DNA from: Microcystaceae cyanobacterium
GTDB taxonomy: Bacteria > Cyanobacteriota > Cyanobacteriia > Cyanobacteriales > Microcystaceae
NCBI GenBank assembly: GCA_041746575.1
Contig: JBGTGT010000005.1
Location: forward strand, 1-33,084
Length of the DNA stretch: 33,084 nucleotides
Direction: 5' to 3'
The position numbers and the translations under genes were made by a program. Below, piece after piece: positions 4,533-23,234 of this stretch. Positions within the stretch are counted from its first letter, which is position 1; every line of letters starts with the position of its first letter. The notes under the pieces are model-generated. The model worked only from the letters and a program-made list of their open reading frames with translations, was not told where the DNA came from and did no database searches.

Positions 4533-7226
4533 TTATTTGCTCTCTGCGTCATCCCAAATCTGAGCAAAATGTTCTAATAACATTCGATGGAAAAAGACAT
4601 AACCTCCCCCCACTTTTTTCATTAAAAGATGCGCCGAAGCGAAGTCAAGAAACTTGGCATAGTTCCAAGGAATAAATCCATTTTGATGAAGCGTCCTTCG
4701 CAGTGCAAAATGCTTCATAATAGTAGTTCCACCAAAGTTTAATCCTAAAAATGGAACAAACAACGATAAAAAACGCAATATCAATAAAGAAATTCTTGAT
4801 ATAATCGAAGGTATTTCTTTGACCTCAAAATTAGTTGTTAACGTAAAAATTAGCATGATTACAACAATTATAAGTATTGGCACTAAAAGTGATGCTAAGA
4901 TAAAGACGACAGCATTTCTTCCCGATTTCCAAATTCCTTGATTAGGAAAGCTTGTCTTTTCCTGTTCTTTGATCGTTATTCCTGGTATTAATCCTAATAT
5001 GAAGAGCGTTAAACATAAATTGATTGTGCCTGAAATACTGATAATATGATCATGCTGTGAAGATGAAGAAGATGAGTAATAAATTGATATAATTATGGAT
5101 ACTACACCCAATATACCAGCTGAATATAAGAAGAAAAAGGGTAGTGTTTTACGCCATGACCAACCCAAGGACTCAACTAATATTAAGCTTTCCATATCTT
5201 CTTGAAACCTTGACAGAGAAAAGAATAAAGTCCATCCCATTTGTGGTAGAAAAGAAGTGCGACCTACTATATAACCACAAATACAAGTTACAATTAAAAT
5301 TAGTATGAGGTTTGTATCTTCTTCGATTAATCCAAACGTTGGTGTAAATATAAGCCCAAAAAGTAATCCAGACATTACGCCTAGCTTTTTCAGATAATCC
5401 TTTTTTAAAGTTTGACTATTTAACCAAGTCGGTTGCATTTTCTCAATCAAAAAGATCGTCTGTTTTTCCTGCACTATCCGACTGGCTAACCAACTGAGCC
5501 ATCGTAATATTTTATCCTTAGAATATTCAGCAATTGTCCCTTGTTCTAATCTTCGATCTATATAATCATTAAATAAATTGTTCTTGCAATTTTCCTCTGA
5601 AACGGAATATAATTGGGGTAATAATTCTTGGACTGACCATCCTTGATAAGCCACACTCATAAAGTTTAAAATCAAAGGCGTTTGCGCAAACTGCTCTAAT
5701 TTTGTCTCTCTTTTTAACAAGGTTTTTAAACCCGATAAAGAACCACCAACCTTATCCAAAAACTGATAGACTTGCTTCGGTTTTAAAGGTTGTAAGCCCA
5801 AAGCACTGCTAATCTTGAGACGTTCGGTTAACACTTCATAATCCTTCACTCTGCTACAAATTGCCACTTCTGTTTGCGGAAATAGCCCCATAAACGTATT
5901 CAACGCTCTTACACAATCGTTCCGATATTCTTCCTTCACTTCATCCAATTCATCCAGCAAGAGAATAAGCTGTTGTTGTCTCAACCACGGTTCACTTAAC
6001 GTCTTGGAAACTTGATATTTTTCCCGTAATTCGTTAATTAACCACGCTATCATTGGTTTTTGTTCTTTTGCCCAAGAAGATAGGTTAAAAACAACGGGTA
6101 TCGGTAAATCTGGTTTTAATTCACTCCGTTTAATTAAACGCTGGGCTAATTGCAGGAGCGCAAGGGTTTTTCCTGCTCCGGGAGAGCCTAAGATTAATAA
6201 TGTGCGACCTTGCCCAATTTCCTCATAAATTCGTGTATTTTGCAACGTTTCATAAGAAGCATCTAATTCTACCGCTAATGCTTCAATTCCTTGAGATAAA
6301 TCTGCGATCGCATCAGGACGATTCTCAAGATCTAGCTTGATTATTGGGCTATTCTGACAAGAAGGTTTTAAAAATCCCTCAATCCAAAAATCCTTGACTT
6401 TATTTAATAAAATTTTACGCTGTTTAACCTCTTCCTTTGTAAGAGAAACCTGATTCTGCGCTGAAAACTTACCAAAATGATCATAAGCATTCCTCGCTTG
6501 ATCTTTGTATTTCTTACGATCAATTTCTTCTTTCAGGAAATCAACCCATTCTTGCGCAAGATCAGGCTGAATCGGAATACTTTTACAGAGATGACTTCCT
6601 TTTAAATCACTTCTTTTCAATAAAATCGGTTTAAGGTATTCTACTACGGAAAGTCGTTTCCTTTCTTCAATGAGGATAAACTGTCGATACTGCTGTGATT
6701 GGCTAGATTGAGCGTTATTTTCACACCAGATTTGAATTTGAGTGCAACCAATATTGTATGCTTTCTCAATCGACTTCCCTGCCGCTAATCCAGTATAAAA
6801 CCCCACCGAGAAGACGTAAGCGGCTTGATCCAAAATCGGTTGACTCATACCGATGACATAATCAATATCTTCTACAATCGCTTTCGCTTGGCGATCGCTA
6901 TCACAAGCATTGAGAACTACACAATTAATTTCATCAGAAAAATTATGAAAGATTCGTGCCAATAGCTCTGTGCTGATCAGTTTTTCTTGTCCCTGCTCAT
7001 CCTGAAACACCAATCCCCGTTTACCCGCTCCATGCCCACAAAAATGAACAATTTGGGGTCTATGTTCTGCTAGGAGTCCCTGTAACTCTTGAGAACGAGC
7101 TTCAAAGCCAAATCTAAGTTCAAACCGTCCCAAACGCTGTATAGCAGTCGTTAAATCAGAGATTTCTCGATTAAGATTTAAGTCTCGTCTCGGATTCGAG
7201 GATAAGATCAGTATTTTGGACATCAA
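4533..7226 (-). CDS. CHAT (caspase-like) domain + NACHT NTPase + multi-transmembrane protein
   Basis: N-terminal KILILSSNP, IVHFCGHG and VVLNACDS (CHAT His/Cys dyad). Walker A GSPGAGKT, Walker B LLLDELDEV, and a TPLIL motif. About 6 hydrophobic helices, ending with the PWNYAKFLDFA...GGGYVFFHRMLLEHF tail typical of cyanobacterial NACHT-TM proteins. Confidence 0.85.
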   Translation of the reverse strand: MMSKILILSSNPRRDLNLNREISDLTTAIQRLGRFELRFGFEARSQELQGLLAEHRPQIVHFCGHGAGKRGLVFQDEQGQEKLISTELLARIFHNFSDEINCVVLNACDSDRQAKAIVEDIDYVIGMSQPILDQAAYVFSVGFYTGLAAGKSIEKAYNIGCTQIQIWCENNAQSSQSQQYRQFILIEERKRLSVVEYLKPILLKRSDLKGSHLCKSIPIQPDLAQEWVDFLKEEIDRKKYKDQARNAYDHFGKFSAQNQVSLTKEEVKQRKILLNKVKDFWIEGFLKPSCQNSPIIKLDLENRPDAIADLSQGIEALAVELDASYETLQNTRIYEEIGQGRTLLILGSPGAGKTLALLQLAQRLIKRSELKPDLPIPVVFNLSSWAKEQKPMIAWLINELREKYQVSKTLSEPWLRQQQLILLLDELDEVKEEYRNDCVRALNTFMGLFPQTEVAICSRVKDYEVLTERLKISSALGLQPLKPKQVYQFLDKVGGSLSGLKTLLKRETKLEQFAQTPLILNFMSVAYQGWSVQELLPQLYSVSEENCKNNLFNDYIDRRLEQGTIAEYSKDKILRWLSWLASRIVQEKQTIFLIEKMQPTWLNSQTLKKDYLKKLGVMSGLLFGLIFTPTFGLIEEDTNLILILIVTCICGYIVGRTSFLPQMGWTLFFSLSRFQEDMESLILVESLGWSWRKTLPFFFLYSAGILGVVSIIISIYYSSSSSSQHDHIISISGTINLCLTLFILGLIPGITIKEQEKTSFPNQGIWKSGRNAVVFILASLLVPILIIVVIMLIFTLTTNFEVKEIPSIISRISLLILRFLSLFVPFLGLNFGGTTIMKHFALRRTLHQNGFIPWNYAKFLDFASAHLLMKKVGGGYVFFHRMLLEHFAQIWDDAESK

Positions 7227-8086: not shown

Positions 8087-9031
8087 TTAGGAATTCAGAG
8101 CAGAATTTACTTCTAAGGAGAGTAATTCTTCATTATGAACGGTATGTACTGATAAAGGGGGTAAGACAGGGAAAGAAGGCTGATGAAGACTAATTAACTG
8201 CGCTAAGGTTCGTTTAAGTTGGGTTCGAGGCACAATTGCATCGACAAAACCGTGTTGCAACAGATATTCAGAGGTTTGAAAATCGTCAGGTAACTTTTCG
8301 CGGATGGTTTGCTCAATCACCCGTCGTCCAGCAAAGCCGATGGTGGCCTTGGGTTCAGCAATAATAACATCTCCTAACATCGCAAAACTAGCGGTGACCC
8401 CTCCCGTGGTAGGATGGGTTAAAACGGGGATATAAAGAAGTTTCGCTGTCCGATGTAGCTCTAAAGCCCCAGAAATCTTGGCCATTTGCATTAAACTGAG
8501 CATCCCTTCCTGCATTCTTGCTCCTCCGGAGGCACAGACAATGACCACGGGGAAGCGTTCTTGGGTGGCGTGTTCAATCAGACGACAGAGTTTTTCGCCG
8601 ACAACTGAGCCCATACTTCCCCCCATAAAGCGGAAATCCATTACCCCTAGAGCGACAGGAAGACCGTCAATTAAGCCTGTCCCTGTTTGAACGGCGTCCT
8701 TGAGTCCCGTTTTTTCTTGATATTCTTTAATACGATCGCCGTAAGACTTCCGATCTTTGAATTGTAGGGCATCTTTGGGGCTAAGATGTTCATTGAGGGG
8801 TGTCCACGTCTGAGCATCAATCAGTTGTTCAATGCGTTCAGTACTATCTACTGTAGTGTGGTAGCCACAGGACTCACAAACCCACTGATTAGCTCTTAAA
8901 TCTTTGGTATAGGTTAATTGGTCACAAGCTTGGCATTTCGTCCATAAACCATCGGCAATCTCCCTTTCAGGGGTTTTATGGATGGTCGGTTCTGTTTGTT
9001 GTCGGTTCGCAAACCAATCGAATAGAGACAT
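8087..9031 (-). CDS. accD: Acetyl-CoA carboxylase carboxyltransferase beta subunit
   Basis: DGLWTKC..C zinc finger, [25 protein letters not shown] and [11 protein letters not shown]. Confidence 0.97.
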
Positions 9032-9060
9032 AGATATTAATATATTGATATGATAGAGAG

Positions 9061-9300
9061 TTAAATGGGTTCAGTGTCTTCGGGGGTACTCAGTAACAGT
9101 AAAGCAGTCCACTGATCGAGAGAACGCACTTGTAACGCCGCCTGACTTCCTTGACCACAATAAATACCGAGTCCGATATCGACGACTCGACTGGGAATAT
9201 CATACGCTGTTAGGAGTTGCTGCATCAATTCCGCTTCCCATCTTGCCCTTGTTTTTCTAATGGTAATCCAATATACCGATTCCATTTTATCAGGTGTCAT
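9061..9300 (-). CDS. Small conserved cyanobacterial protein (DUF2007-like), upstream of accD
   Basis: W...[21 protein letters not shown]...G...LQV pattern. It ends 29 bp before the accD start on the same strand. Confidence 0.65.
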
Positions 9301-9524
9301 CCGGTTTGCTATCTAAACGCTTAAGCTAACTGTAACGGTTTCTCCCGAATCTTGAAGTTATAGGGGTATCAGGGCAGACGAGACTGCTTTCTAATCATGC
9401 TCATTGTAGATTAGATGGATGGCGTTGCGCTAATTTCAGGCAATGGATGCAAACCGCCCATTTTCTTCTATTTTTGGGAAAATGCTTGAGTTATGAGTTA
9501 GCAGATAATGAGTTTCAGAAGATC

Positions 9525-10922
9525 CTACATGAAGTCGTTTTTACCCCATTCTGTGCGTCCTGATAAGCGATCGCTAAAATAACGTTGATAAAGTTCACAA
9601 CTGACCTTTACTTGATTGCCTTGTAAGGTCACCAGCCCCATACTGTGTAATTTAAAAGCCAATAATTGATCCAATTCAATAGGGGTTGAAACGTTAATCA
9701 CCTGCTCATAGGCTTGCCCTAGCATCGGGTTTTCCTGTAAGGATTGTAACAGACGATGGAGGTGATGATGATAGATTCCTTCGTCAGTGGCTGAGGTTTG
9801 AATCAGTGGCTCTAAGGTTAAGGATTGACTGGTGAGATGATAAAAGGCTTGCTGAGTGAGGTAGGGATGGCCGCCCATTAAGTCCATTAACGGTAACAAG
9901 TCTTGCTCTGATAACGATAAACGATAGCGATGAGCTAAATCTTGAACCTGTTCTAGGGTAAAGGGGTGCAATTCGATGGCAAAGCCCACATTAAAAGGGG
10001 ATTTATTGATATCTAGGGGAATATAAACTTCAGTAGAATGCACAATAATCAGGCGTAAATTTTGCCAAAGCGGATTACCACTGGCACCGTAGGCGGCTTC
10101 TTCGTACCAAGATCGCAATAACGTAAAGAAATCATCGGCAATCTCAGGATGCAAAAAGACTTCATCCACTTGATCTAAAGCCAAAATAAGACTTCCTTCA
10201 AGATCGGGTAAGATGCAATCTTCAAAAAAGGCGGTGCAGTTACTCTTACTGCCGAAGGTATCACTCCAGTAGTCATCAATTTTGTGAGGTGTCTGAAGTT
10301 TTCGAGACACAGCATAGCAAAACCAGCGTAAAAATCGATCTAAATCCGAAAAAGCCGCTTTATCTGCCCGTTGCAAACTTAAAGGAATAACCGTTAAGGC
10401 ATTCTTTTCACTCTGTTGTTGAGCATGAGCAAGAATTCTGACCATGAGAGACGTTTTTCCCATTTTTCGAGGAGCTTTAATGCGAATTAACGCACCGGGG
10501 CGCATGATCTCTTCATAGCAACGGTGTTCAACCGGATAACGATCAATATAGAAACTTGAATCGAGAGGAATAACATTGGTTAAGGATTCAGAAATCACGG
10601 TAATAGGGGGAGAAGCCCTCTTCACTGTTTCAGTCTTTGCTTTTTGGCTGAGAACAGCAATCAATGTAGTTTTACTGACCTTTTCTCCTAAGCTAGCCGA
10701 CAAAATTTTCCACAATTTCGGGCCGACATCATGTTTAATATATTCAGGTGCGTAACCGACCCTATCAGCAATTTCATCATAACTTTGTCCTAACCAAGCC
10801 CCTTGTAAGACAGCCACTTCGATATTTTTGAGATGTCTAGAAGTCTGAGAAAAAACCGCCTCGTCCGCAACGCTTAAAGCCATTTCAAAAGAGAGGGGCG
10901 GTTCTCTGAGATAGTCTTCCAT
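9525..10922 (-). CDS. N-terminal HTH (vWA-MoxR-associated-type HTH) + AAA_35 (STAND-like) ATPase; predicted soluble regulator
   Basis: LKNIEVAVLQGAWLGQSYDEIA...GPKLWKILS..LGEKVSK HTH-type N-terminus. AAA_35 motifs SSFYIDR, IKAPRKMGKTSL (Walker A), LILALDQVD (Walker B), SPFNVG and GGHPYL. No TM segment. Confidence 0.82.
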   Translation of the reverse strand: MEDYLREPPLSFEMALSVADEAVFSQTSRHLKNIEVAVLQGAWLGQSYDEIADRVGYAPEYIKHDVGPKLWKILSASLGEKVSKTTLIAVLSQKAKTETVKRASPPITVISESLTNVIPLDSSFYIDRYPVEHRCYEEIMRPGALIRIKAPRKMGKTSLMVRILAHAQQQSEKNALTVIPLSLQRADKAAFSDLDRFLRWFCYAVSRKLQTPHKIDDYWSDTFGSKSNCTAFFEDCILPDLEGSLILALDQVDEVFLHPEIADDFFTLLRSWYEEAAYGASGNPLWQNLRLIIVHSTEVYIPLDINKSPFNVGFAIELHPFTLEQVQDLAHRYRLSLSEQDLLPLMDLMGGHPYLTQQAFYHLTSQSLTLEPLIQTSATDEGIYHHHLHRLLQSLQENPMLGQAYEQVINVSTPIELDQLLAFKLHSMGLVTLQGNQVKVSCELYQRYFSDRLSGRTEWGKNDFM

Positions 10923-11043
10923 TGACGCTAACCCAACGTTGAGATGTGTCGTTTATTTTAACCCACAACGCTAATAAGTCAGCAAATTTTAAGTTTAATT
11001 TCTATTTAGATACTGACATTCTGTGAGCCATTCAGCTTAAAGA

Positions 11044-11949
11044 TTAGTATCTTTGTCGTAGATATAAACCCACTAAACAAAAAATTCCGACGGCTCCTAG
11101 GCTATTAAGTAAATTCGGTTCGGGAACTTGTTCAATTCTAATACGAGCCACTGAGTAATTGGGTGTTGTGGGGTCAGAATTAAGAAAAGAACCCCCAAAG
11201 AAGTCCAAAATTCCCCCACTACCGGCGGGCAAAAAACCGGGGTGCAGTTGAATCGCTTCTGTTTCGGTCACCCCTTGAGCAATTTGAGGTAACGTAAAAG
11301 GAACATTGGCTAAACTTTCATCATTCACTTCCGTCCCTGCATCCCAAACTTGATTGCCTGATACAAGAAAATCTGCTCCCCGAAAATTGCCATTTATATC
11401 AAAAATTTCAATCGGGTTTTGATCAGCAATAAAAGCGTCGTTACTGGGAAAAAACATAGCGGCAAAGCTAAAATAACGGTTTTGTCCCCCCTTACCGTTG
11501 AGCTTAATAAGGGTTGAATTAACCTCTTCCGGAAAGAAGCCAATAAACGGGTTGTCGGGAGTAGAAAGAATTCCTTGAACACCGCCATTACTGCTTTGAC
11601 TATTAGCAAATAAACCCGAAATAGTATTGTCTAAAGGAATGACAAAATTATTAGGATCAAAGCCCAATCCCTCAAACCCCGGTAATTGACTTTCTAGCCC
11701 AGTGTAGCCATCTTCTGCAATATGTTCAATCCCCGTAGAAGCCAATGCTCCCGCATCAAATGTATTGAAACTTCCATCATGAAAACCAAACCATAAAGGG
11801 GTAACGATTGCCCCTTGAGGGGGGGTTAAGTTTTCGAGCGTAATTTTTAAGGTAATCGCTTTTACTTCCAAAGGAATAGTGAGCAGAGAGGTCAAGGAAA
11901 GGGTTATAGCGATCTTTGTTTTGCTAATAGGTAGGAACGGTTTTAACAT
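11044..11949 (-). CDS. Spondin_N-domain protein with PEP-CTERM sorting signal
   Basis: Signal peptide, then ITLENLTP, TPLWFGFHDG, IAEDG, FAAMFFPSNDAF and WDAGTEVNDE (Spondin_N). C-terminal VPEP + hydrophobic stretch + RQR. RBS AGGAG. Confidence 0.85.
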   Translation of the reverse strand: MLKPFLPISKTKIAITLSLTSLLTIPLEVKAITLKITLENLTPPQGAIVTPLWFGFHDGSFNTFDAGALASTGIEHIAEDGYTGLESQLPGFEGLGFDPNNFVIPLDNTISGLFANSQSSNGGVQGILSTPDNPFIGFFPEEVNSTLIKLNGKGGQNRYFSFAAMFFPSNDAFIADQNPIEIFDINGNFRGADFLVSGNQVWDAGTEVNDESLANVPFTLPQIAQGVTETEAIQLHPGFLPAGSGGILDFFGGSFLNSDPTTPNYSVARIRIEQVPEPNLLNSLGAVGIFCLVGLYLRQRY

Positions 11950-11993
11950 ATTTTCTCCTGTTAAGGTAAGACCAAAAATGACAAAAAAATTGA

Positions 11994-12230
11994 TTAAGCA
12001 AGGGCAGAATTAAAAGGAAACTTCGTGGCAGGTTGAGGCGCAAGACTATTTCCCCCTAATTGATAGGCAACCCCTCGATATTTCAGCAAGCTATTCAGTT
12101 GAGCAATTTTTGGCTCTCCTTTTTCAAGGATGTCGTTAACCCCTCGATACTTGATCTCAATAGAATGGGGACGATAGGCTGAGGTAGCGAAATCTTTTTG
12201 GTATTGACAACCCCGATAAGATAAAAGCAT
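11994..12230 (-). CDS. DUF4278 family small protein
   Basis: Three (L/I).YRG..Y-type repeats (LSYRGCQY, IKYRGVND, LKYRGVAY). RBS AAGGAG. Confidence 0.8.
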   Translation of the reverse strand: MLLSYRGCQYQKDFATSAYRPHSIEIKYRGVNDILEKGEPKIAQLNSLLKYRGVAYQLGGNSLAPQPATKFPFNSALA

Positions 12231-12268
12231 AAAATTTTCTCCTTGCGTTATTGTTTGGCGTTAATACC

Positions 12269-12312
12269 GTTATAAGTTCCATCCAGATAAATGGCGATAC
12301 AGAAAAGTTAAG
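12269..12312 (-). promoter_or_regulatory. Leftward promoter with shared 24-bp motif (copy 1)
   Basis: Minus strand reads CTTAACTTTTCTGTATCGCCATTT (12312-12289), with TATAAC starting 38 nt from the motif start (12274). Confidence 0.6.
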
Positions 12313-12497
12313 CATTTCTCTTTTGAATCCCCCTTAACTGATCTGTAGAGAAATTCAAGCAAAAAAACTCGTAACATGAACAAGCCTTTGATGAGGGATA
12401 CCATCTATCCACAATCGTTCATGAAAAACATACCAATCTTGTTTATAGGTCAATAATTCTCTAAACCGATAAAGATCTAAAATCCGTCAAAAAGATC

Positions 12498-12541
12498 CTT
12501 AACTTTTCTATATCCCCTTTTTGGGTCATTGACTCTATAAA
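12498..12541 (+). promoter_or_regulatory. Rightward promoter with shared 24-bp motif (copy 2)
   Basis: Plus strand reads CTTAACTTTTCTATATCCCCTTTT (12498-12521), with TATAAA starting 38 nt from the motif start (12536). It is 21/24 identical to copy 1. Confidence 0.6.
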
Positions 12542-12580
12542 GAATATAACCTCCTTGTTCTCCTAACCTAACGAATTCTA

Positions 12581-15500
12581 ATGTTTGACCTTATTTCCTA
12601 TAAATACCAAGTAGGGGGTGGCTTACCCTCTAATGCCCCCAGTTATGTCATTCGCAAAGCCGATGATGAAGTCTATCAAGCGTTGAAAGCAGGAGAATTT
12701 TGTTATGTTCTCAATGCGCGTCAGGTGGGCAAATCCAGTTTACGCGTCCGTGTCACTCAGCGATTACAAGCAGAAGGATTTGTTTGCGTCAATGTTGATC
12801 TTTCAGGGATTGGCAATCGAGACAGTACCCCTGCCCAATGGTATGCCGATATTATGATGCGCCTGATACGGGGGCTAAAATTATCAAAAGAGATTAATCT
12901 GCGTCATTGGTTAGCAGAACGACAAAATCTGTCTCCTATCAACTGTTTAGGAGAATTATTGCAAGATTTTCTCCCCGAAAAAATTGAGCAACCCATCGTG
13001 ATCTTTTTCGATGAAATTGACAGTACCTTGAGTCTTCCCTTTAATACCGATGACTTTTTTGCTCTTTTGCGGTCTTGCCATGAATATTCCCACTTAACCT
13101 TTACTTTACTAGGAGTAGCTACCCCTTCTGACTTGATTGCCGATAAAACCCGAACCCCCTTCAATGTCGGCTGTAGTATTCAACTCAAAGGATTTGAACT
13201 CGAAGAAGTACAGCCCCTCATCGTGGGCTTAGAATACAAAGTCAAACAACCACGGTGGGTGATGCAGGAAATTTTGAATTGGACTGGAGGACAACCCTTT
13301 TTAACTCAGAAACTCTGCCAAATGATTACTTCCCATCAAGGAATGCCTCTAGACACCTTAGACGTTCGTGAAATTGTTCAAGCGAAAATGATTGATAATT
13401 GGGTAGCGCAGGACGAACCCCCTCATTTACGAACCATTCGCGATCGCTTATTAACCCACGAACAACGCGCTAGTCGTCTGTTAGGACTCTATCAGCAAAT
13501 TTTACGGCAAGGTAACGTCGTCGCCGATGATTCCCCCGAACAAATTGAACTGTTACTCTCAGGTTTAGTCGTTAAAGAAGACGGAAATCTCAGAATATAT
13601 AATCAAATTTATGCAGAAGTTTTTAATTTAGATTGGGTAGAAAAACAAATTAATCAATTACGTCCTTATGCTGAACATTTTAAAGCGTGGGTGACCTCCA
13701 ATTACCACGATGAAACCCATTTACTGCGCGGACAAGCCCTCCTCGAAGCCCAAGCGTGGGCCAAAGACAAGAACTTAAGTAACCCAGACTATCGTTACTT
13801 GGCCGCCAGTCAGGAAGTAGAAAAACGAGAGGTTCAAGGGAATTTAGCGATTACTCAAAAAGCCAATCAAATTTTAACCACTGCTGAACAGAAAGGCAAA
13901 AAAATTATTCGATTGGGGGCGTTTATTGCCATTATCCTCCTTGGGGTTGCGGGATGGCTAACCCTCTTAACGGCTTCCCAAAAAAGACAAGTTGCCTTTG
14001 GGGAAATTAAGGCGATGACGCTCTCTTCGGAAGTCGCCTTTGAATCCCATCATACCCTCGATGCCTTGCTGGAAAGTCTAAAAGCAGGGATAAAACTACG
14101 GCAAATGGGCTGGGAAAGCGCAGATACCGACCTAAAAGTCCGATTAGAAAAAGCTCTCAGTCAATCACTCTATTGGATACGAGAGCATAATCGCTTAGAC
14201 GGCCATGAAGATGTGGTCACAAGGGTCAAGTTTAGCCCTGATGGTCAAACCCTTGCCACCGCCAGTTGGGATAAAACCGTAAAAATTTGGCAAACCGATG
14301 GTACGCTTTTACACACCCTCAAAGGTCACACTGATGCGGTATGGAGTGTCAACTATAGCCCCGATGGTCAACTGATTATCAGTGCCAGTCGCGATAAAAC
14401 CGCTAAAATTTGGCGAGTGAAGGATGGTAAAGAAGTTACGACTCTGCCTGTGGGTAAAGATTGGGTAGCCTGTGTGGGATTTAGCCCCGATAGTCAAATG
14501 GCCGCCACCATGGGCTGGAATGGCACGATTTACTTATGGAATATCAATGGGACGCTGATCAGATCCTTCCCGACCCATAAAGCTCCCGTGGTTGCCATTC
14601 ATGTCAGTCCCCAAGGGGATAAAATTGCTACCGCCAGTCGAGACGGTACAGCCAAAATTTGGAGTTTGGAGGGCAAAGAATTAGCCACCCTCCGAGGACA
14701 TCAGGATTGGGTCATGTATGTAAACTTTAGTAGCGATGGTCAAACCCTAGTAACGGGAAGTAAGGATAAAACGGCAAAAATCTGGGATCTTCAGGGCAAG
14801 GAACTAGCGACCTTACAAGGACACACGGATACGGTCGGCAGTGCCGTTTTTAGCCCCGATGGCCAAACGATTGCCACCGCAGGATTTGATAAAACTGTTC
14901 ATCTCTGGAATCGCCACGGCAAACCCCTACAAGTTCTCCAAGGCCACACGGAAGCAGTATGGGGCGTTAATTTTAGTAATGATGGTAAAACCCTCGCTAG
15001 TAGCGGAGAAGACGGCACCGTTAGACTGTGGAAACTAGATCAGGGCGCAAACGGCTCAAGATCCTTTGAACTTCTACCAATGGGAGAAGATGCGATCGCC
15101 CACGTCAGTCTCAGTCCCGATGGTCAGATTTTGGCAACGGCGGGACGCTATACGATGGCAAAGCTTTGGGATTTACAAGGCAATCTACTAACCGTTCTTA
15201 ACAGTCATGGCGATAATCTCAGAAGTATTCACTTTAGTCCCGATGGACAATTGATCGTTACCACCAGTCGCGATAAAACCGCAAAGGTGTGGAATCTTCA
15301 AGGCAAAGAATTATTGACCTTGCGCGGCCATCAAGGCGAAGTTCGAGATGCCCGTTTTAGCCCCGATGGACAGTTAATTGCCACAGCTAGTTGGGACACG
15401 ACAGCTAAAGTGTGGAATCTTCAAGGAAAAGAAATCTTAACCTTAAAAGGACATCAAGGCGTCATCAGAAAGGTCAGTTTTAGCCCCAATGGTCAAATTT

Positions 15501-16033
15501 TAGCAACGGCTAGTGAAGACGGCACCGCCAAACTCTGGAATTTGCAGGGGCAACTTTTAAACACGTTAAAAGGCCATAAGGCGGGCATTTTAGCAGTGGC
15601 TTTTAGTCCTGATGGACAGCTCATTGCTACAGCTAGTAAAGATAAAACGGTCAAACTCTGGAATCTAGAGGGGCAAAACCTAGAAACGCTTCAAGATCAT
15701 GAGGCAGAGGTCAACGATGTCAATTTTAGTCGGGATGCTCAGCAAATTGCCACTGTTTCTGAAGATGGTACGATTAAATTATGGTCACAAAAGGGTGAGG
15801 TACTTCAAACCTTAGGGGGTCATCGTTCAGGTGTAAAAAGTGTCAGTTTTTTGCCGGATGGTCAACGCATGATTACATCCGATTCTATTGGTAATATCAT
15901 TCTGTGGCAAGGGTCTTGGGATGTTGAACCCGAAAAACTCTTAACACAAAGCTGTGAATGGCTGAAAGATTACCTAAAAAGCAATGCAAATGTCAGTGCA
16001 TCTGAGCGAAATCTCTGCGATTTGGTTAAATAA
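12581..16033 (+). CDS. AAA_35 (STAND-like) ATPase + single TM + 14 WD40 repeats
   Basis: YQVGGGL...SYVIR.AD, LNARQVGKSSL (Walker A), IVIFFDEID (Walker B), TPFNVG and GGQPFLTQ. TM LGAFIAIILLGVAGWLTLLTA is preceded by KGKKIIR. 14 GH...FSPDG...W repeats counted, consistent with two 7-bladed propellers. Confidence 0.9.
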   Translation: MFDLISYKYQVGGGLPSNAPSYVIRKADDEVYQALKAGEFCYVLNARQVGKSSLRVRVTQRLQAEGFVCVNVDLSGIGNRDSTPAQWYADIMMRLIRGLKLSKEINLRHWLAERQNLSPINCLGELLQDFLPEKIEQPIVIFFDEIDSTLSLPFNTDDFFALLRSCHEYSHLTFTLLGVATPSDLIADKTRTPFNVGCSIQLKGFELEEVQPLIVGLEYKVKQPRWVMQEILNWTGGQPFLTQKLCQMITSHQGMPLDTLDVREIVQAKMIDNWVAQDEPPHLRTIRDRLLTHEQRASRLLGLYQQILRQGNVVADDSPEQIELLLSGLVVKEDGNLRIYNQIYAEVFNLDWVEKQINQLRPYAEHFKAWVTSNYHDETHLLRGQALLEAQAWAKDKNLSNPDYRYLAASQEVEKREVQGNLAITQKANQILTTAEQKGKKIIRLGAFIAIILLGVAGWLTLLTASQKRQVAFGEIKAMTLSSEVAFESHHTLDALLESLKAGIKLRQMGWESADTDLKVRLEKALSQSLYWIREHNRLDGHEDVVTRVKFSPDGQTLATASWDKTVKIWQTDGTLLHTLKGHTDAVWSVNYSPDGQLIISASRDKTAKIWRVKDGKEVTTLPVGKDWVACVGFSPDSQMAATMGWNGTIYLWNINGTLIRSFPTHKAPVVAIHVSPQGDKIATASRDGTAKIWSLEGKELATLRGHQDWVMYVNFSSDGQTLVTGSKDKTAKIWDLQGKELATLQGHTDTVGSAVFSPDGQTIATAGFDKTVHLWNRHGKPLQVLQGHTEAVWGVNFSNDGKTLASSGEDGTVRLWKLDQGANGSRSFELLPMGEDAIAHVSLSPDGQILATAGRYTMAKLWDLQGNLLTVLNSHGDNLRSIHFSPDGQLIVTTSRDKTAKVWNLQGKELLTLRGHQGEVRDARFSPDGQLIATASWDTTAKVWNLQGKEILTLKGHQGVIRKVSFSPNGQILATASEDGTAKLWNLQGQLLNTLKGHKAGILAVAFSPDGQLIATASKDKTVKLWNLEGQNLETLQDHEAEVNDVNFSRDAQQIATVSEDGTIKLWSQKGEVLQTLGGHRSGVKSVSFLPDGQRMITSDSIGNIILWQGSWDVEPEKLLTQSCEWLKDYLKSNANVSASERNLCDLVK

Positions 16034-20148: not shown

Positions 20149-21069
20149 TTATTCAATTCGATAGAGCAAATCAAGGGGAATATCTTCTCGGGGAATTGAG
20201 CGACGATACATTTCCCCTAAATGAGCTAGGACGTCAATTAGCGTCAGACGGTAATCTAACAAAATTTCTTCGTTTCTTCCTTCTAATTTGAGTTGTTGCG
20301 CAAATTCATCCATCAGTTTCATGTGAATTTCCAAAAATTGAGAGGCAGAAACATCTGCAAAAAAGGCTTGATTGACTAATTGATCAATTAATTGATTGAC
20401 ATCGGAATCTTGAGAAAAATAACAAAGAATAATATCACGATAATAAGAATTGAGTTGTTGTAATAAGTTCTTTTTTTGGTCAGGGAAAAGGTTGCGATAA
20501 AAGTATTTTGGGTCTCTTTTATAATACACACCCAAATAGCCCAATCGTTCTTTCAGTTTCTCCGCTAGGCGACGTTGTTGTAAGATGAGAGAACTGGGAT
20601 GATCGTCGATTTTTTGAAGAGTAGAGGAGGTTTTCGGGGCTGACGATAAAAGGCAACTAGGAGCAAGATGAAGAAATTGCGTAATTGCTAAATCAATGGA
20701 CGTGTTAATCTGCCCTAATTGCTCGAGTTTGAGATGAACTTCTGAATTATGGTAAAAATAAATGGGGCATTCTGAGAGATTATCTCTAAAAAAGACCTCC
20801 TTGTCTAGTGCATCAATAATAACAACCGGTAAAAGAGTTCCCTGCTCATATAACTGATTGAAAATGGGTAGAATAGCCGTTTCTGACAAAACAATCAAAC
20901 AATCAATCTCTTCGGTATGATTTTTAACATGGTGAATAAAAGCCTCAGCGGAATCTACAAAATGTAGGTGATATCGCCCGTCACTCAAACTTTCTTTCAA
21001 GAATTGAGCGGTGTTGGCTGAGGAAACAAATAAACAAATGGATAGTTGAGAATACAAGGAAATTATCAA
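20149..21069 (-). CDS. kaiA: Circadian clock protein KaiA
   Basis: N-terminal pseudo-receiver (IDCLIV, LLPVVII, YHNSEVHL) and the C-terminal KaiA domain QQRRLAEKLKERLGYLGVYYKR...EIHMKLMDEF...EGRNEEILLDYRLTLIDVLAHLGEMYRRSIP. The start is uncertain (TTG 21069 or about 21057). Confidence 0.95.
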   Translation of the reverse strand: MIISLYSQLSICLFVSSANTAQFLKESLSDGRYHLHFVDSAEAFIHHVKNHTEEIDCLIVLSETAILPIFNQLYEQGTLLPVVIIDALDKEVFFRDNLSECPIYFYHNSEVHLKLEQLGQINTSIDLAITQFLHLAPSCLLSSAPKTSSTLQKIDDHPSSLILQQRRLAEKLKERLGYLGVYYKRDPKYFYRNLFPDQKKNLLQQLNSYYRDIILCYFSQDSDVNQLIDQLVNQAFFADVSASQFLEIHMKLMDEFAQQLKLEGRNEEILLDYRLTLIDVLAHLGEMYRRSIPREDIPLDLLYRIE

Positions 21070-21245
21070 CTTTACAGCTAAAATAATGATACCCGTTAAG
21101 TTTTGTCACTATAAGGGTTCTGGTAAAAACGTTAGCATAAACTGCCCAGTTAAATTAATATTTGTTTATAATCAAGACAAAACTGTAATAAATTATGAGT
21201 TCAAGCTGTCAGATCATCAGCAGATAAGTCCATAATAGAGAAAAA

Positions 21246-23234
21246 TTGTTGTCTGGATTTGGAAAAAACGTGACGGACTCAAGCGTCCCTGACCCCCTTC
21301 TCACTGCCTCTTCTCCCTATCTAGCTTTAGAAACATGGCTGGACACTTTACCCTTGCCCATTTTACTCAAAAAAGAATCCGGTGAAATTTTGTACCAGAA
21401 TCGGCTTTGGTGTGAAAAGATTGGCAACTTTAGTCCTTTATCCCCCGAATCGCTCCCCTCTATTTTTCTGCGTTCTCCTACCCTGCCTGAGACGGACGCG
21501 AACAATTTTGAGGATTTCCGTGCTTATTCTGAGTGGCAATCTAGCAAAAAAGCGGATTATATTGATTTTTGTCCTTCTCAATCCTTGTTTCCTCAGCATC
21601 GCTGGCAGTTTCTTTATTTTCCCTATTTAGGATTGTCTCTTCAACAGAAAACGGTCTTAATCATTGCGCTTGATATTACAGAACAACAGCAGGACTTCCG
21701 AACATTAGAAGCACAAAATGCAGATTTATTGCAATTAAACCGCTTGAAAGATGAATTTTTAGACTTTATTAGCCACGAATTAAAATCCCCTTTAACGGCT
21801 GTCGTCGGTTTATCTAGTTTATTACAAGATCGCCGCGTAGGCCCTTTGAACGCGGCACAGGAACGTTATGCTAATTTAATTTACCGTAGTAGCCGTCAAT
21901 TGATGGTTTTGGTCAATAATTTACTAGATTTAACTCGCTTAGAGAATGGGCAACTGCAATTAAATTCGCATTCGATTGATGTTCCGAGCCTTTGTCAGCA
22001 AGCCTATCAAAATCTGCGCAATAATAACCCTGAAAGTGATTTGCCGGATTTTATTCTTGAAATTGACAATCACGAAACTTTGATAGCCGATGAACAACGA
22101 CTGCAACAAATGTTAAGTGTTCTTTTGGAGAATGCTGCTAAATTAAGCCAGAATGATGGAAAAATTGGCATTCGTGTCAAAGGATGTCCCCGTTGGGTGA
22201 CTTTTACGGTTTGGGACACGGGAGAAGGTATTCCCGAAGACATTCAATCTTCTCTTTTGCAACACGGTCAATCCCCTAATCCCTGTCTTAATGCCCATTA
22301 TCCTCAGGTAGGACTTGGCTTAATCTTAACGCAACGTCTCGCCCGCGCTCATGGTGGAGATTTATCGTTTCGCTCGAAAATGGGACAAGGAAGTCAATTT
22401 ACCTTACTGCTACCGGTTCAAAATCAGGAATATTCCGCTTCAGCTTCCTCTAAACGTCAACCGTTAGTTTTAGTGGTAGAAACGCTCCCTCATTGGATTG
22501 AAGACTTGACAGATAAGTTGTCGGAATTGGGAAATCAGGTAGTAATTGCCCGTACAGGGACAGAAGCTTTAGAAAAAGCCCGTCAACTGAAACCAGACAT
22601 CATTTTTCTTAATCCTTGGCTTCCTTTATTGTCAGGATGGGATGTCTTAACCTTACTGAAGTCGGATGTTCAAACACAGCAAATTCGCATTATTTTGACC
22701 GATTATCAAACAGATAGTTCTCTCAAAACCTATCAAGCTGATGCGATATTAAGCTTACCTAGCGATTTAGAGGTGTTAAAGCGGCTACTGAACGAAAATA
22801 AAGAAGGAAAGTCTTTAGAAAATCCCCTCTCGAACCCCTCTTTGACTTTGTTATTTCTCCATCCTGATAGTGATACCTTTCAAGGTTCTACCCTAACCCC
22901 CCAAGATTTAGCTCTCATTAATCAACTTTCTAAGCAGAATCATCGTATCTTACAAGCGGATGACTTAGAGCAAGCGTCCTTACTTGTCTCAGTATGGGAT
23001 GTGGACGTTGTCGTCTTGGATGGACATAAACTTAAGCATAAAAATGATTACCTACGAATATTTGCTACCCTTCCTGAATTGGCTACTTTACCCTTAGTTA
23101 CCCTCGATAAAGCGACAACGAAATTAGCCAATCGTCTCCCCAGTTTAAGGGTTTTTCCTTGTTTAGATCCTGATGGTCAAGAGGCTTTAAGTCAACTGTG
23201 GCAGGTTGTTCAAATTGCCGCAAAAATGCCGTAG
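21246..23234 (+). CDS. Hybrid sensor histidine kinase with degenerate receiver domains, divergent from kaiA
   Basis: H-box ISHELKSPL, N-box LLENAAK, G1 WDTGEGIP and G2 GLGLILTQRLARAHGG. Receiver-like LVLVVE...KPDIIFLNP has Asn at the phospho-Asp position. A second receiver-like segment (VVVLDG) follows. Confidence 0.85.
   Translation: MLSGFGKNVTDSSVPDPLLTASSPYLALETWLDTLPLPILLKKESGEILYQNRLWCEKIGNFSPLSPESLPSIFLRSPTLPETDANNFEDFRAYSEWQSSKKADYIDFCPSQSLFPQHRWQFLYFPYLGLSLQQKTVLIIALDITEQQQDFRTLEAQNADLLQLNRLKDEFLDFISHELKSPLTAVVGLSSLLQDRRVGPLNAAQERYANLIYRSSRQLMVLVNNLLDLTRLENGQLQLNSHSIDVPSLCQQAYQNLRNNNPESDLPDFILEIDNHETLIADEQRLQQMLSVLLENAAKLSQNDGKIGIRVKGCPRWVTFTVWDTGEGIPEDIQSSLLQHGQSPNPCLNAHYPQVGLGLILTQRLARAHGGDLSFRSKMGQGSQFTLLLPVQNQEYSASASSKRQPLVLVVETLPHWIEDLTDKLSELGNQVVIARTGTEALEKARQLKPDIIFLNPWLPLLSGWDVLTLLKSDVQTQQIRIILTDYQTDSSLKTYQADAILSLPSDLEVLKRLLNENKEGKSLENPLSNPSLTLLFLHPDSDTFQGSTLTPQDLALINQLSKQNHRILQADDLEQASLLVSVWDVDVVVLDGHKLKHKNDYLRIFATLPELATLPLVTLDKATTKLANRLPSLRVFPCLDPDGQEALSQLWQVVQIAAKMP

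Follow-up and report, generated by a model that had tools for sequence, protein, structure and literature searches.

How two ATPases of one Pfam family, AAA_35, might divide between them the sensing of a signal and the control of genes is the question raised by a divergent gene group in a Microcystaceae cyanobacterium (assembly GCA_041746575.1, contig JBGTGT010000005.1, positions 1 to 33,084; this whole 33,084-nucleotide stretch is hereafter the window). Leftward run the genes for a DUF4278 protein, a spondin-domain protein and an ATPase with a helix-turn-helix (HTH), here called protein A, and rightward runs the gene for a second ATPase, protein B, with a transmembrane segment and WD40 repeats. 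The comparative analysis described here suggests that A and B probably form a split, kinase-free STAND system resembling MalT, with A as the proposed transcription factor, which would read a multi-box operator, and B as the proposed membrane sensor and co-oligomerising receptor. There is a real chance, which we put slightly short of even, that the pair marks a separate class of bacterial transmembrane signalling beside two-component, one-component and extracytoplasmic-function systems, one in which a soluble STAND transcription factor would be driven, through hetero-oligomerisation, by a STAND receptor in the membrane. The features on which the argument turns are as follows, scores being those of a position weight matrix (PWM) introduced below.

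9525..10922, minus strand: protein A, 465 aa, HTH plus type-A AAA_35 STAND ATPase (Pfam, models and fold searches).
11044..11949, minus strand: spondin-domain protein with an N-terminal hydrophobic leader and a PEP-CTERM-like tail (NF038123; tail by inspection).
11994..12230, minus strand: DUF4278 small protein, 78 aa, three YRG repeats (Pfam, E 3e-9).
12269..12312, minus strand: left promoter element, box and -35-like hexamer at 12312-12292, 17-nt spacer, -10-like hexamer at 12274-12269 (PWM 31.4 bits, best in the genome).
12333..12342, minus strand: distal box in inverted orientation, upstream of the proximal one at the modal distance of 24 nt (from the sequence).
12498..12541, plus strand: right promoter element before B, box at 12498-12512, degenerate -35 at 12513-12518, -10-like hexamer at 12536-12541 (PWM 24.4 bits, third in the genome).
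12581..16033, plus strand: protein B, 1150 aa, type-B AAA_35, transmembrane segment and 14 WD40 repeats (Pfam, hydropathy and orthologs).
G000:C55:35513-38493, elsewhere in the genome (L223:5514-8494; gene C55:5612-8494 of L223): third site, before the gene for a CSLREA/Gly-rich/RTX-repeat protein.

The four open reading frames (ORFs) lie where the first-pass annotation had placed them and point in the directions it gave, the DUF4278 gene being the first of the left operon (DUF4278-spondin-A). What this operon and the B gene have in common is a promoter element, CTTAACTTTTCTGTATCGAC-N18-TATAAA, with a conserved part of 20 bases and, often, inverted boxes upstream in helical phase. From a proximal box it runs through a -35-like TCGAC hexamer and, after a spacer of 17 nt, a -10-like hexamer, and it is found upstream of 20 of the 27 DUF4278 genes in the genomic islands that harbour orthologs of A. 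The PWM was trained on those 20 sites only, with the window left out and no B genes included, and it nevertheless finds both divergent promoters of the window; above 18 bits there are three sites in the whole 4.2-Mb genome, all intergenic and before island-type genes, as opposed to none in the reversed genome. Judged from sequence, DUF4278 would be one of the two most constant targets of the element.

The distribution of the element follows that of A. Of the genomes compared, 49 of 50 A-positive ones contain it, as against 1 of 29 A-negative relatives (reversed control, 2/79), and an even sample of 350 genomes of the phylum contains the exact pattern in all six genomes with A and in one of the 344 without; five of these six positives lie outside the training set, and the sites that were read precede B or DUF4278 in five of nine cases. 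A match in genome G010, inside an ORF and devoid of a -10, is probably due to chance. When counted by locus, 97 distinct sites fall in 55 of 101 A-ortholog loci and none in 48 other AAA_35 loci, while 31 of 37 cognate B genes, as compared with 0 of 32 other type-B genes, have the element in front of them (18/23 cognate genes in a hand count that leaves out loci fetched through the motif). An independent scan of metagenomes from the motif side retrieved 41 distinct sites, 28 with a -10-like start at the right distance; by BLAST, seven precede B orthologs, six DUF4278 genes and four CSLREA genes. Viral contigs contained no exact match. Inverted boxes are far more frequent upstream of the element (91) than downstream (5), with gaps clustering near 14, 24 and 36 nt and a mode at 24 nt (22/91). 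Such a box is present at 66 of 88 sites, and 59 of the 76 boxes within 60 nt keep to an 11-bp phase. A generic σ70 promoter scan, with four found and 7.0 expected, was uninformative. Since both promoters of the divergon bear an element that tracks the HTH-ATPase, the divergon is probably a transcriptional target, as had been proposed from the window alone.

Behind the element stand the genes for B and DUF4278, and with them genes for spondin-PEP-CTERM and CSLREA proteins, flavin monooxygenases, a cyclic-peptide exporter (TIGR01194), a MACPF protein and small proteins of ~59 aa. In the genome of the window, the predicted regulon is made up of the DUF4278-spondin-A operon, B and an unlinked gene for a 960-aa secreted CSLREA/Gly-rich/RTX-repeat protein, which is a probable trans target and whose CSLREA/Gly-rich family also occurs in the islands of other genomes. 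The theme of the regulon is extracellular: surface, biofilm and competition. Because the sensor itself falls within the regulon, together with small exported peptides, a cyclic-peptide exporter, surface proteins and genes of the NRPS/FAAL-like (nonribosomal peptide synthetase; fatty acyl-AMP ligase) and monooxygenase kinds, A and B may form an autoinducing, quorum-like circuit in this branch, and our best guess at the ligand would be an extracellular product made by the population or by its neighbours. The labels NRPS-like, FAAL-like, double-glycine leader and peptidoglycan-binding were read from N-terminal sequences rather than from a family scan. Two kinds of small product can be singled out. 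One is a conserved, unannotated ~59-aa protein (L043:10417-10596, plus six homologs) with a hydrophobic leader and a QAC motif, a possible lipoprotein or peptide precursor, whose gene stands behind the element beside those for a flavin monooxygenase and the cyclic-peptide exporter. The other is a 55-aa peptide with a double-glycine-type leader, encoded behind the element beside a peptide-export ABC transporter (L125 near 9544, and L130).

Protein A is soluble and lacks a sensor domain, its chain ending after the winged helix. AAA_35 covers aa 117-450 (Pfam, E 1e-142), and the fold model (mean pLDDT 84.9) places five helices in an N-terminal domain, which a flexible linker joins to a STAND core. 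The best fold matches of the core are the archaeal proteins PAB2304 (2qen, Z 20.4, root-mean-square deviation (rmsd) 4.4, 310 aligned) and SSO1545 (2fna, Z 19.6), and those of aa 107-458 also include NLRs and MalT (8bob, Z 14.9). Both A and B have the features of STAND proteins, namely a P-loop with Walker A and B motifs, a helical domain with GxP and a winged helix, the fold matches applying to A only. The Walker A signature GK[TS] is present in 60/60 A orthologs and 70/70 B orthologs, the GxP motifs G351-H-P353 and G236-Q-P239 are conserved, and Arg270 is invariant in A orthologs. The Walker B motif of B, FFDEID, keeps its D and E in 70/70 orthologs; in A the Asp is followed by Q in 40 of 60, so that ATP hydrolysis by A is uncertain.

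The N-terminal HTH ascribed to A from the sequence finds a counterpart in the model, where aa ~12-101 fold as a LuxR/NarL-like helical HTH (best Z 7.2, a middling value, rmsd 2.4, 64 aligned; the ten best matches listed are of the LuxR/NarL family), but the ~100 N-terminal residues have no Pfam match and their profile signal is weak. Foldseek with the HTH model gave no match at E<=0.001, and searching PDB sequences with alignments built for A and for its HTH gave nothing meaningful, a lysozyme-repeat match there looking spurious. Each position of the recognition helix from 59 to 71 is identical in 58-60 of 60 orthologs, and paralogous HTHs differ there. Among these paralogs are three short stand-alone proteins with an HTH of the same type and a different recognition helix (G000:C132:3146-4904, C129:6685-8241 and C82:1259-2848; L230-L232). 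Their genes are divergent from PEP-CTERM genes, which they may regulate; a fourth (C92) is not so placed, and the regions upstream of the stand-alone paralogs have no common 12-mer. Another A-type HTH belongs to a 270-aa protein encoded upstream of a ferredoxin/V4R-like cluster (G000:C12:976-7205), which we take to resemble the Synechocystis slr0144-0151 operon, whose neighbour there is presumably hat (slr0143).

Protein B consists of a type-B AAA_35 domain (aa 14-348, Pfam E 1.5e-30), a helical linker, one transmembrane helix, a helical stretch, a WD40 double propeller and a C-terminal Cys pair. The ~41-aa spacing of Trp residues gives 14 repeats, while Pfam counts 13. The single hydrophobic segment (aa 445-463, nt 13913-13969; Kyte-Doolittle hydropathy 2.42) follows KGKKIIR and is kept at the same position in 70/70 aligned orthologs, Lys and Arg being commoner before than after it in 67/70, and the Cys pair is invariant in 70/70. 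Because segment, charge bias and cysteines are conserved, we infer an external propeller with a disulfide, in line with the topology first suggested, by which the WD40 region probably lies outside the cytoplasm. As to mobility, type-B AAA_35 genes are present on 45 PLSDB plasmids, mostly cyanobacterial, and the island can be plasmid-borne, since plasmid NZ_CP091914.1 encodes a 61% ortholog of B.

The two ATPases had been assigned to one family, and they do have the PFNVG and GG.P.L motifs in common, but their AAA domains are only 23% identical and represent two distinct subtypes, AAA_35 splitting into a high-scoring, A-like type and a low-scoring, B-like type. Six type-A and seven type-B domains are encoded in this genome, with two further tandem A-B operons. 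Across 10 near-complete genomes (3 of 92 rows being dropped as fragments), a type-A domain is encoded no more than 15 kb away from 27 of 45 type-B domains, where ~1.25 would be expected, and 17 of 44 type-A domains have a type-B within 1.5 kb. A and B are even fused in one chain, in both orders, at 3 of 20 loci picked for A/B proximity (L105, L106, L107). Pairing of A and B is thus a family-wide trait and not unique to the locus in the window. Further arrangements include one type-A gene followed by four tandem type-B transmembrane-WD40 genes, one broken by an insertion element (L108, G028:C1:4595000-4614999), giant proteins of 1,900-2,100 aa that end in type-B AAA_35 near type-A genes (L106, L107, L118-L123), and a multi-gene cassette between the giant type-B gene and the type-A gene (L119, L122, L123).

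A search with A returned 74 loci of 50-77% identity, nearly all cyanobacterial, with one match at E<=1e-140 in each of 50 of the genomes concerned. The idea of a conserved four-gene module fails here, the exact order occurring in 0/74 loci; DUF4278 lies within 8 kb in 13/74, and in most Nostocales A follows a MinD/ParA-like gene (44/74 loci) inside a larger island. The recurrent neighbours of A in these Nostocales islands (L035-L085) are a coiled-coil and a MinD/ParA-like gene, a pyridoxamine-oxidase-like gene and a glutathione S-transferase gene, together with a divergent gene for a soluble HTH-NB-ARC-WD40 protein, a third STAND protein near A. When 40 A-ortholog regions were extended by up to 20 kb on one side, 20 contained a B ortholog within ~20 kb of A (ATPase 61-85% identical), and four more had only the WD40 end of B (57-67%) at the region edge. 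Since B is linked while gene order and cargo vary, A and B are passed down together, as a cognate pair, in an island that rearranges and whose cargo varies. A separate search for B across 50 genomes missed several B genes seen directly in the extended regions and was not used to score absence. The pair is also present in strains that have been cultured and completely sequenced, such as Chlorogloeopsis fritschii PCC 6912 (L080, L143).

Linkage and fusions, together with a predicted complex, support the earlier proposal that the two ATPases are a cognate receptor/regulator pair. Modelled together, B(1-420) and A(110-458) reach an ipSAE of 0.80, the best of three controls reaching 0.00; runs agree in at least 86% of contacts and the pLDDT of the partners is at least 81, the mark applied being one reached by 116 of 157 solved complexes and by 2 of 215 mismatched pairs. 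In the modelled interface B meets A through its nucleotide face, and A contributes the face on which Arg270 lies; this prediction supports binding between A and B.

Put together, these data suggest the following sequence of events. With a single pass through the cytoplasmic membrane, B would hold its ATPase inside the cell and the double β-propeller outside it, and a signal at the propeller would switch the ATPase, which would then assemble head-to-tail with that of A into an ATP-dependent hetero-oligomer. Such an oligomer could present several HTHs to the operator, i.e. to the fixed box abutting the -35 and to the inverted boxes on the same helical face. The operator comes from comparative genomics, and A is its presumed reader. 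As B belongs to its own predicted regulon, feedback would follow. By analogy with MalT and LuxR-type proteins, activation seems the likelier outcome, if not by a wide measure, with repression as the alternative, kept in play because the conserved bases extend into the -35 hexamer. An obligate hetero-oligomer is favoured over sequester-and-release, since A and B occur fused in one chain.

It is nevertheless important to stress the points that weigh against this mechanism. The element stands directly upstream of A in 0/65 A orthologs, and 23 of the 44 type-A domains have no type-B within 15 kb. The ATPase of B was not seen in 20 of the 40 extended regions, where one side was searched and many contigs are short, and two linked B genes are truncated (L144, L145). 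As for the HTH, a Z of 7.2 is typical of common helical arrangements, σ region 4 matches tie with it, and the profile evidence amounts to a best GerE E of 0.035, in 7/48 members. Helical phasing appears less strict when distinct gap values are counted (11/19 in phase, the gap of 19 being seen 8 times), the test uses related sequences, and kinship inflates the box enrichment. The count of 49 in 50 is partly circular, the PWM coming from these loci, and kin are not independent; the phylum positive G109 is a training genome, and the protein search behind the phylum count scored at most four candidates per genome. Finally, the complex score may reflect memory of AAA+ rings, and close cousins can pass.

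The alternative that survives best, although we hold it unlikely, is that A acts as a stand-alone STAND transcription factor, B being a mere member of its regulon or a MalK-like anchor that sequesters A at the membrane. Sequestration is the main rival because MalT can be held at the membrane in this way by MalK, as reported in the available part of PMC10427625. The B gene itself lies behind the element, many type-A genes have no type-B neighbour, and certain genomes (G215, G096, G037, G067, G079) have the two genes unlinked or widely separated. However, A has no sensor domain of its own, the predicted interface joins the nucleotide face of B to the Arg270 face of A, and partners fused in one chain, in either order, cannot release one another.

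Less probable still is a reading in which an alternative σ factor or another island regulator recognises the element, while A and B would be its neighbours on the island and make up an NLR-like module for defence or cell death. The conserved stretch does span the -35 position and is followed by a -10 at fixed spacing, as in a σ-specific promoter, and the islands contain MACPF, toxin-antitoxin and ParA-like genes. Yet the element tracks this one group of A orthologs across scattered genera, and no σ factor was identified among the recurrent neighbours. The other HTH protein of the island, HTH-NB-ARC-WD40, was not found in three genomes that carry the element (G000, G031, G078), which leaves A as the best candidate reader. 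Regarding defence, A carries no toxic effector domain, the best PADLOC hit being a weak PDC-S27 match (E 9e-4 over 88 aa), and the propellers of B are not hypervariable, their conservation being 0.68-0.72 compared with 0.73 for the helical region.

A closed module, in which the spondin protein is the ligand of the B propeller or carries it, had been put forward from the window and is now very unlikely. In the protein itself a spondin domain is there (NF038123, 110 bits, cut-off 40), the tail with VPEP, a hydrophobic helix and basic residues is visible by inspection, and the genome encodes cyanoexosortase A (CrtA, 279 bits, cut-off 150), so that the tail and the exosortase expected of PEP-CTERM sorting are both present, but the Pfam matches to Spond_N and PEP-CTERM are both below their cut-offs. 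Spondin genes are indeed linked in the window and at L050/L150, L072/L145 and L132, behind the element directly or via DUF4278. Nevertheless, B is conserved where spondin is not: 72 of 74 loci have no spondin gene within 8 kb. The linked spondins, moreover, reach no more than 39-66% identity, and other cargo can replace them, for instance a monooxygenase in the same divergon position in G239. Spondin genes thus stand behind the element like exchangeable cargo, present within 8 kb in only 2 of 74 loci. The three spondin homologs elsewhere in the genome lack the element, and at least 11 DUF4278-like genes were found in the whole genome by pattern search, several as tandem pairs, the copy in the window being the only one with a high-scoring element.

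Finally, the proximal box is complementary to the distal one, with a T-run at the end, and DUF4278 genes follow glutamine riboswitches according to the available part of PMC6212724, but an RNA hairpin (terminator or riboswitch) in place of a protein site is scarcely credible, given that the boxes lie outside both predicted transcripts, being upstream of the -35/-10 of both divergent promoters, that the stem is A/T-rich with loops of 9-55 nt clustering at ~11-bp steps, that the partner box is missing at 22/88 sites, and that an Rfam scan of window positions 9000-13000 gave no match.

Elsewhere in the window, the flanking genes for an accD-type carboxyl transferase and a Mur ligase are housekeeping genes outside the unit. 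A separate CHAT-NACHT protein of 897 aa is encoded at 4533-7226 (minus strand), 2.3 kb from A, with no link to the A/B pair seen, and kaiA lies within 20149-23234, divergent from a hybrid histidine kinase gene and without adjoining kaiB or kaiC ORFs. As regards the cargo, DUF4278 forms part of the glutamine synthetase inhibitor IF17 (PMC6212724, in the part available), and motility and biofilm formation have been linked to PEP-CTERM export in Nostoc (PMC12188702, likewise in part).

AAA_35 is present in 30 of the 31 cyanobacterial genomes examined, with ~4-19 domains per genome in 10 cyanobacteria, and no function for these proteins was found in the literature searched. The locus therefore offers a defined sensor-regulator pair, a 20-base operator and a predicted regulon for a direct test of AAA_35 function. 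Were the mechanism preferred here, a hetero-oligomer of B and A acting on the operator, to prove right, paired receptors of NLR type would serve transcriptional control across a membrane instead of immunity, a possible switch for silent NRPS, peptide and surface-protein clusters would be at hand. If the pair does mark a separate class of signalling, the AAA_35 set of cyanobacteria would amount to a large, hitherto uncharacterised network for signalling in which both inputs (WD40, CHASE2, kinase chains) and outputs could be exchanged.

When compared with known systems, the pair combines familiar traits in a layout of its own. PAB2304 and SSO1545, the best fold matches of the A core, are proteins that we take to belong to the MNS clade of STAND ATPases. 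The pair itself may be the Npun2340/2341 family (Leipe et al. 2004). The name of that family, which is mentioned in PMC8195603, suggests two adjoining cyanobacterial genes, and the supplement rows of PMC8195603 labelled Npun2340/2341 are Aeromonas proteins. Two STAND proteins with divided labour are likewise found in paired NLRs (NAIP-NLRC4 and plant pairs) and in the two-gene nSTAND2 operon, for which the same source, as far as available, predicts a hetero-oligomer. These are cytoplasmic immunity or death systems, whereas here the sensor would cross the membrane and the predicted output is DNA binding. Moreover, one nSTAND2 partner has eroded NTP motifs and is fused to GT4 or HEPN, while A and B both keep Walker A and show no GT4 and no significant HEPN match in Pfam. 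Antiphage STANDs of the Avs/bNACHT kind carry a toxic N-terminal effector on the STAND chain, in contrast to A, which has the HTH only.

Two-component systems and pairs of extracytoplasmic function (ECF) σ and anti-σ factors likewise join a membrane sensor to a soluble regulator with autoregulation and a local regulon, and a NarL-like HTH is a further likeness. Their hallmarks are nevertheless not detected: no histidine kinase or receiver domain is listed for A or for aa 1-533 of B, and no σ region 2 or anti-σ domain for either, in Pfam and NCBIfam. Synechocystis Hat (slr0143), a membrane-associated protein of ~1190 aa, is a further point of comparison. Like B it contains WD repeats, and its regulatory phenotype concerns the transport of inorganic carbon (PMC2951903 and PMC4057619, in the parts available). 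No description of an A/B pair with an operator or regulon was found in the literature, subscription journals, bioRxiv supplements and supplement file 13 of PMC8195603 lying outside the search, and the available parts of PMC7159879, PMC11119718, PMC10907252, 10.64898/2026.01.04.697583 and 10.64898/2026.10.19.760177 describe no such system.

In design, MalT of E. coli resembles A in joining a STAND core to a DNA-binding domain. MalT carries a LuxR-type HTH and unites sensor and C-terminal effector in one soluble chain that senses a cytoplasmic sugar, whereas the HTH of A is N-terminal and A has no sensor. Its oligomer binds promoters with several sites (PMC10427625, in the part available), to which the multi-box promoters seen here in silico (66/88 sites) would correspond. 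Unlike in MalT, sensing would be delegated to a second, membrane-spanning STAND protein, B. The parts are thus of known kinds, i.e. STAND transcription factors, paired STANDs (PMC8195603, in part) and WD40 sensors; what is new here is the conserved promoter element and the predicted regulon that are tied to the A/B pair.

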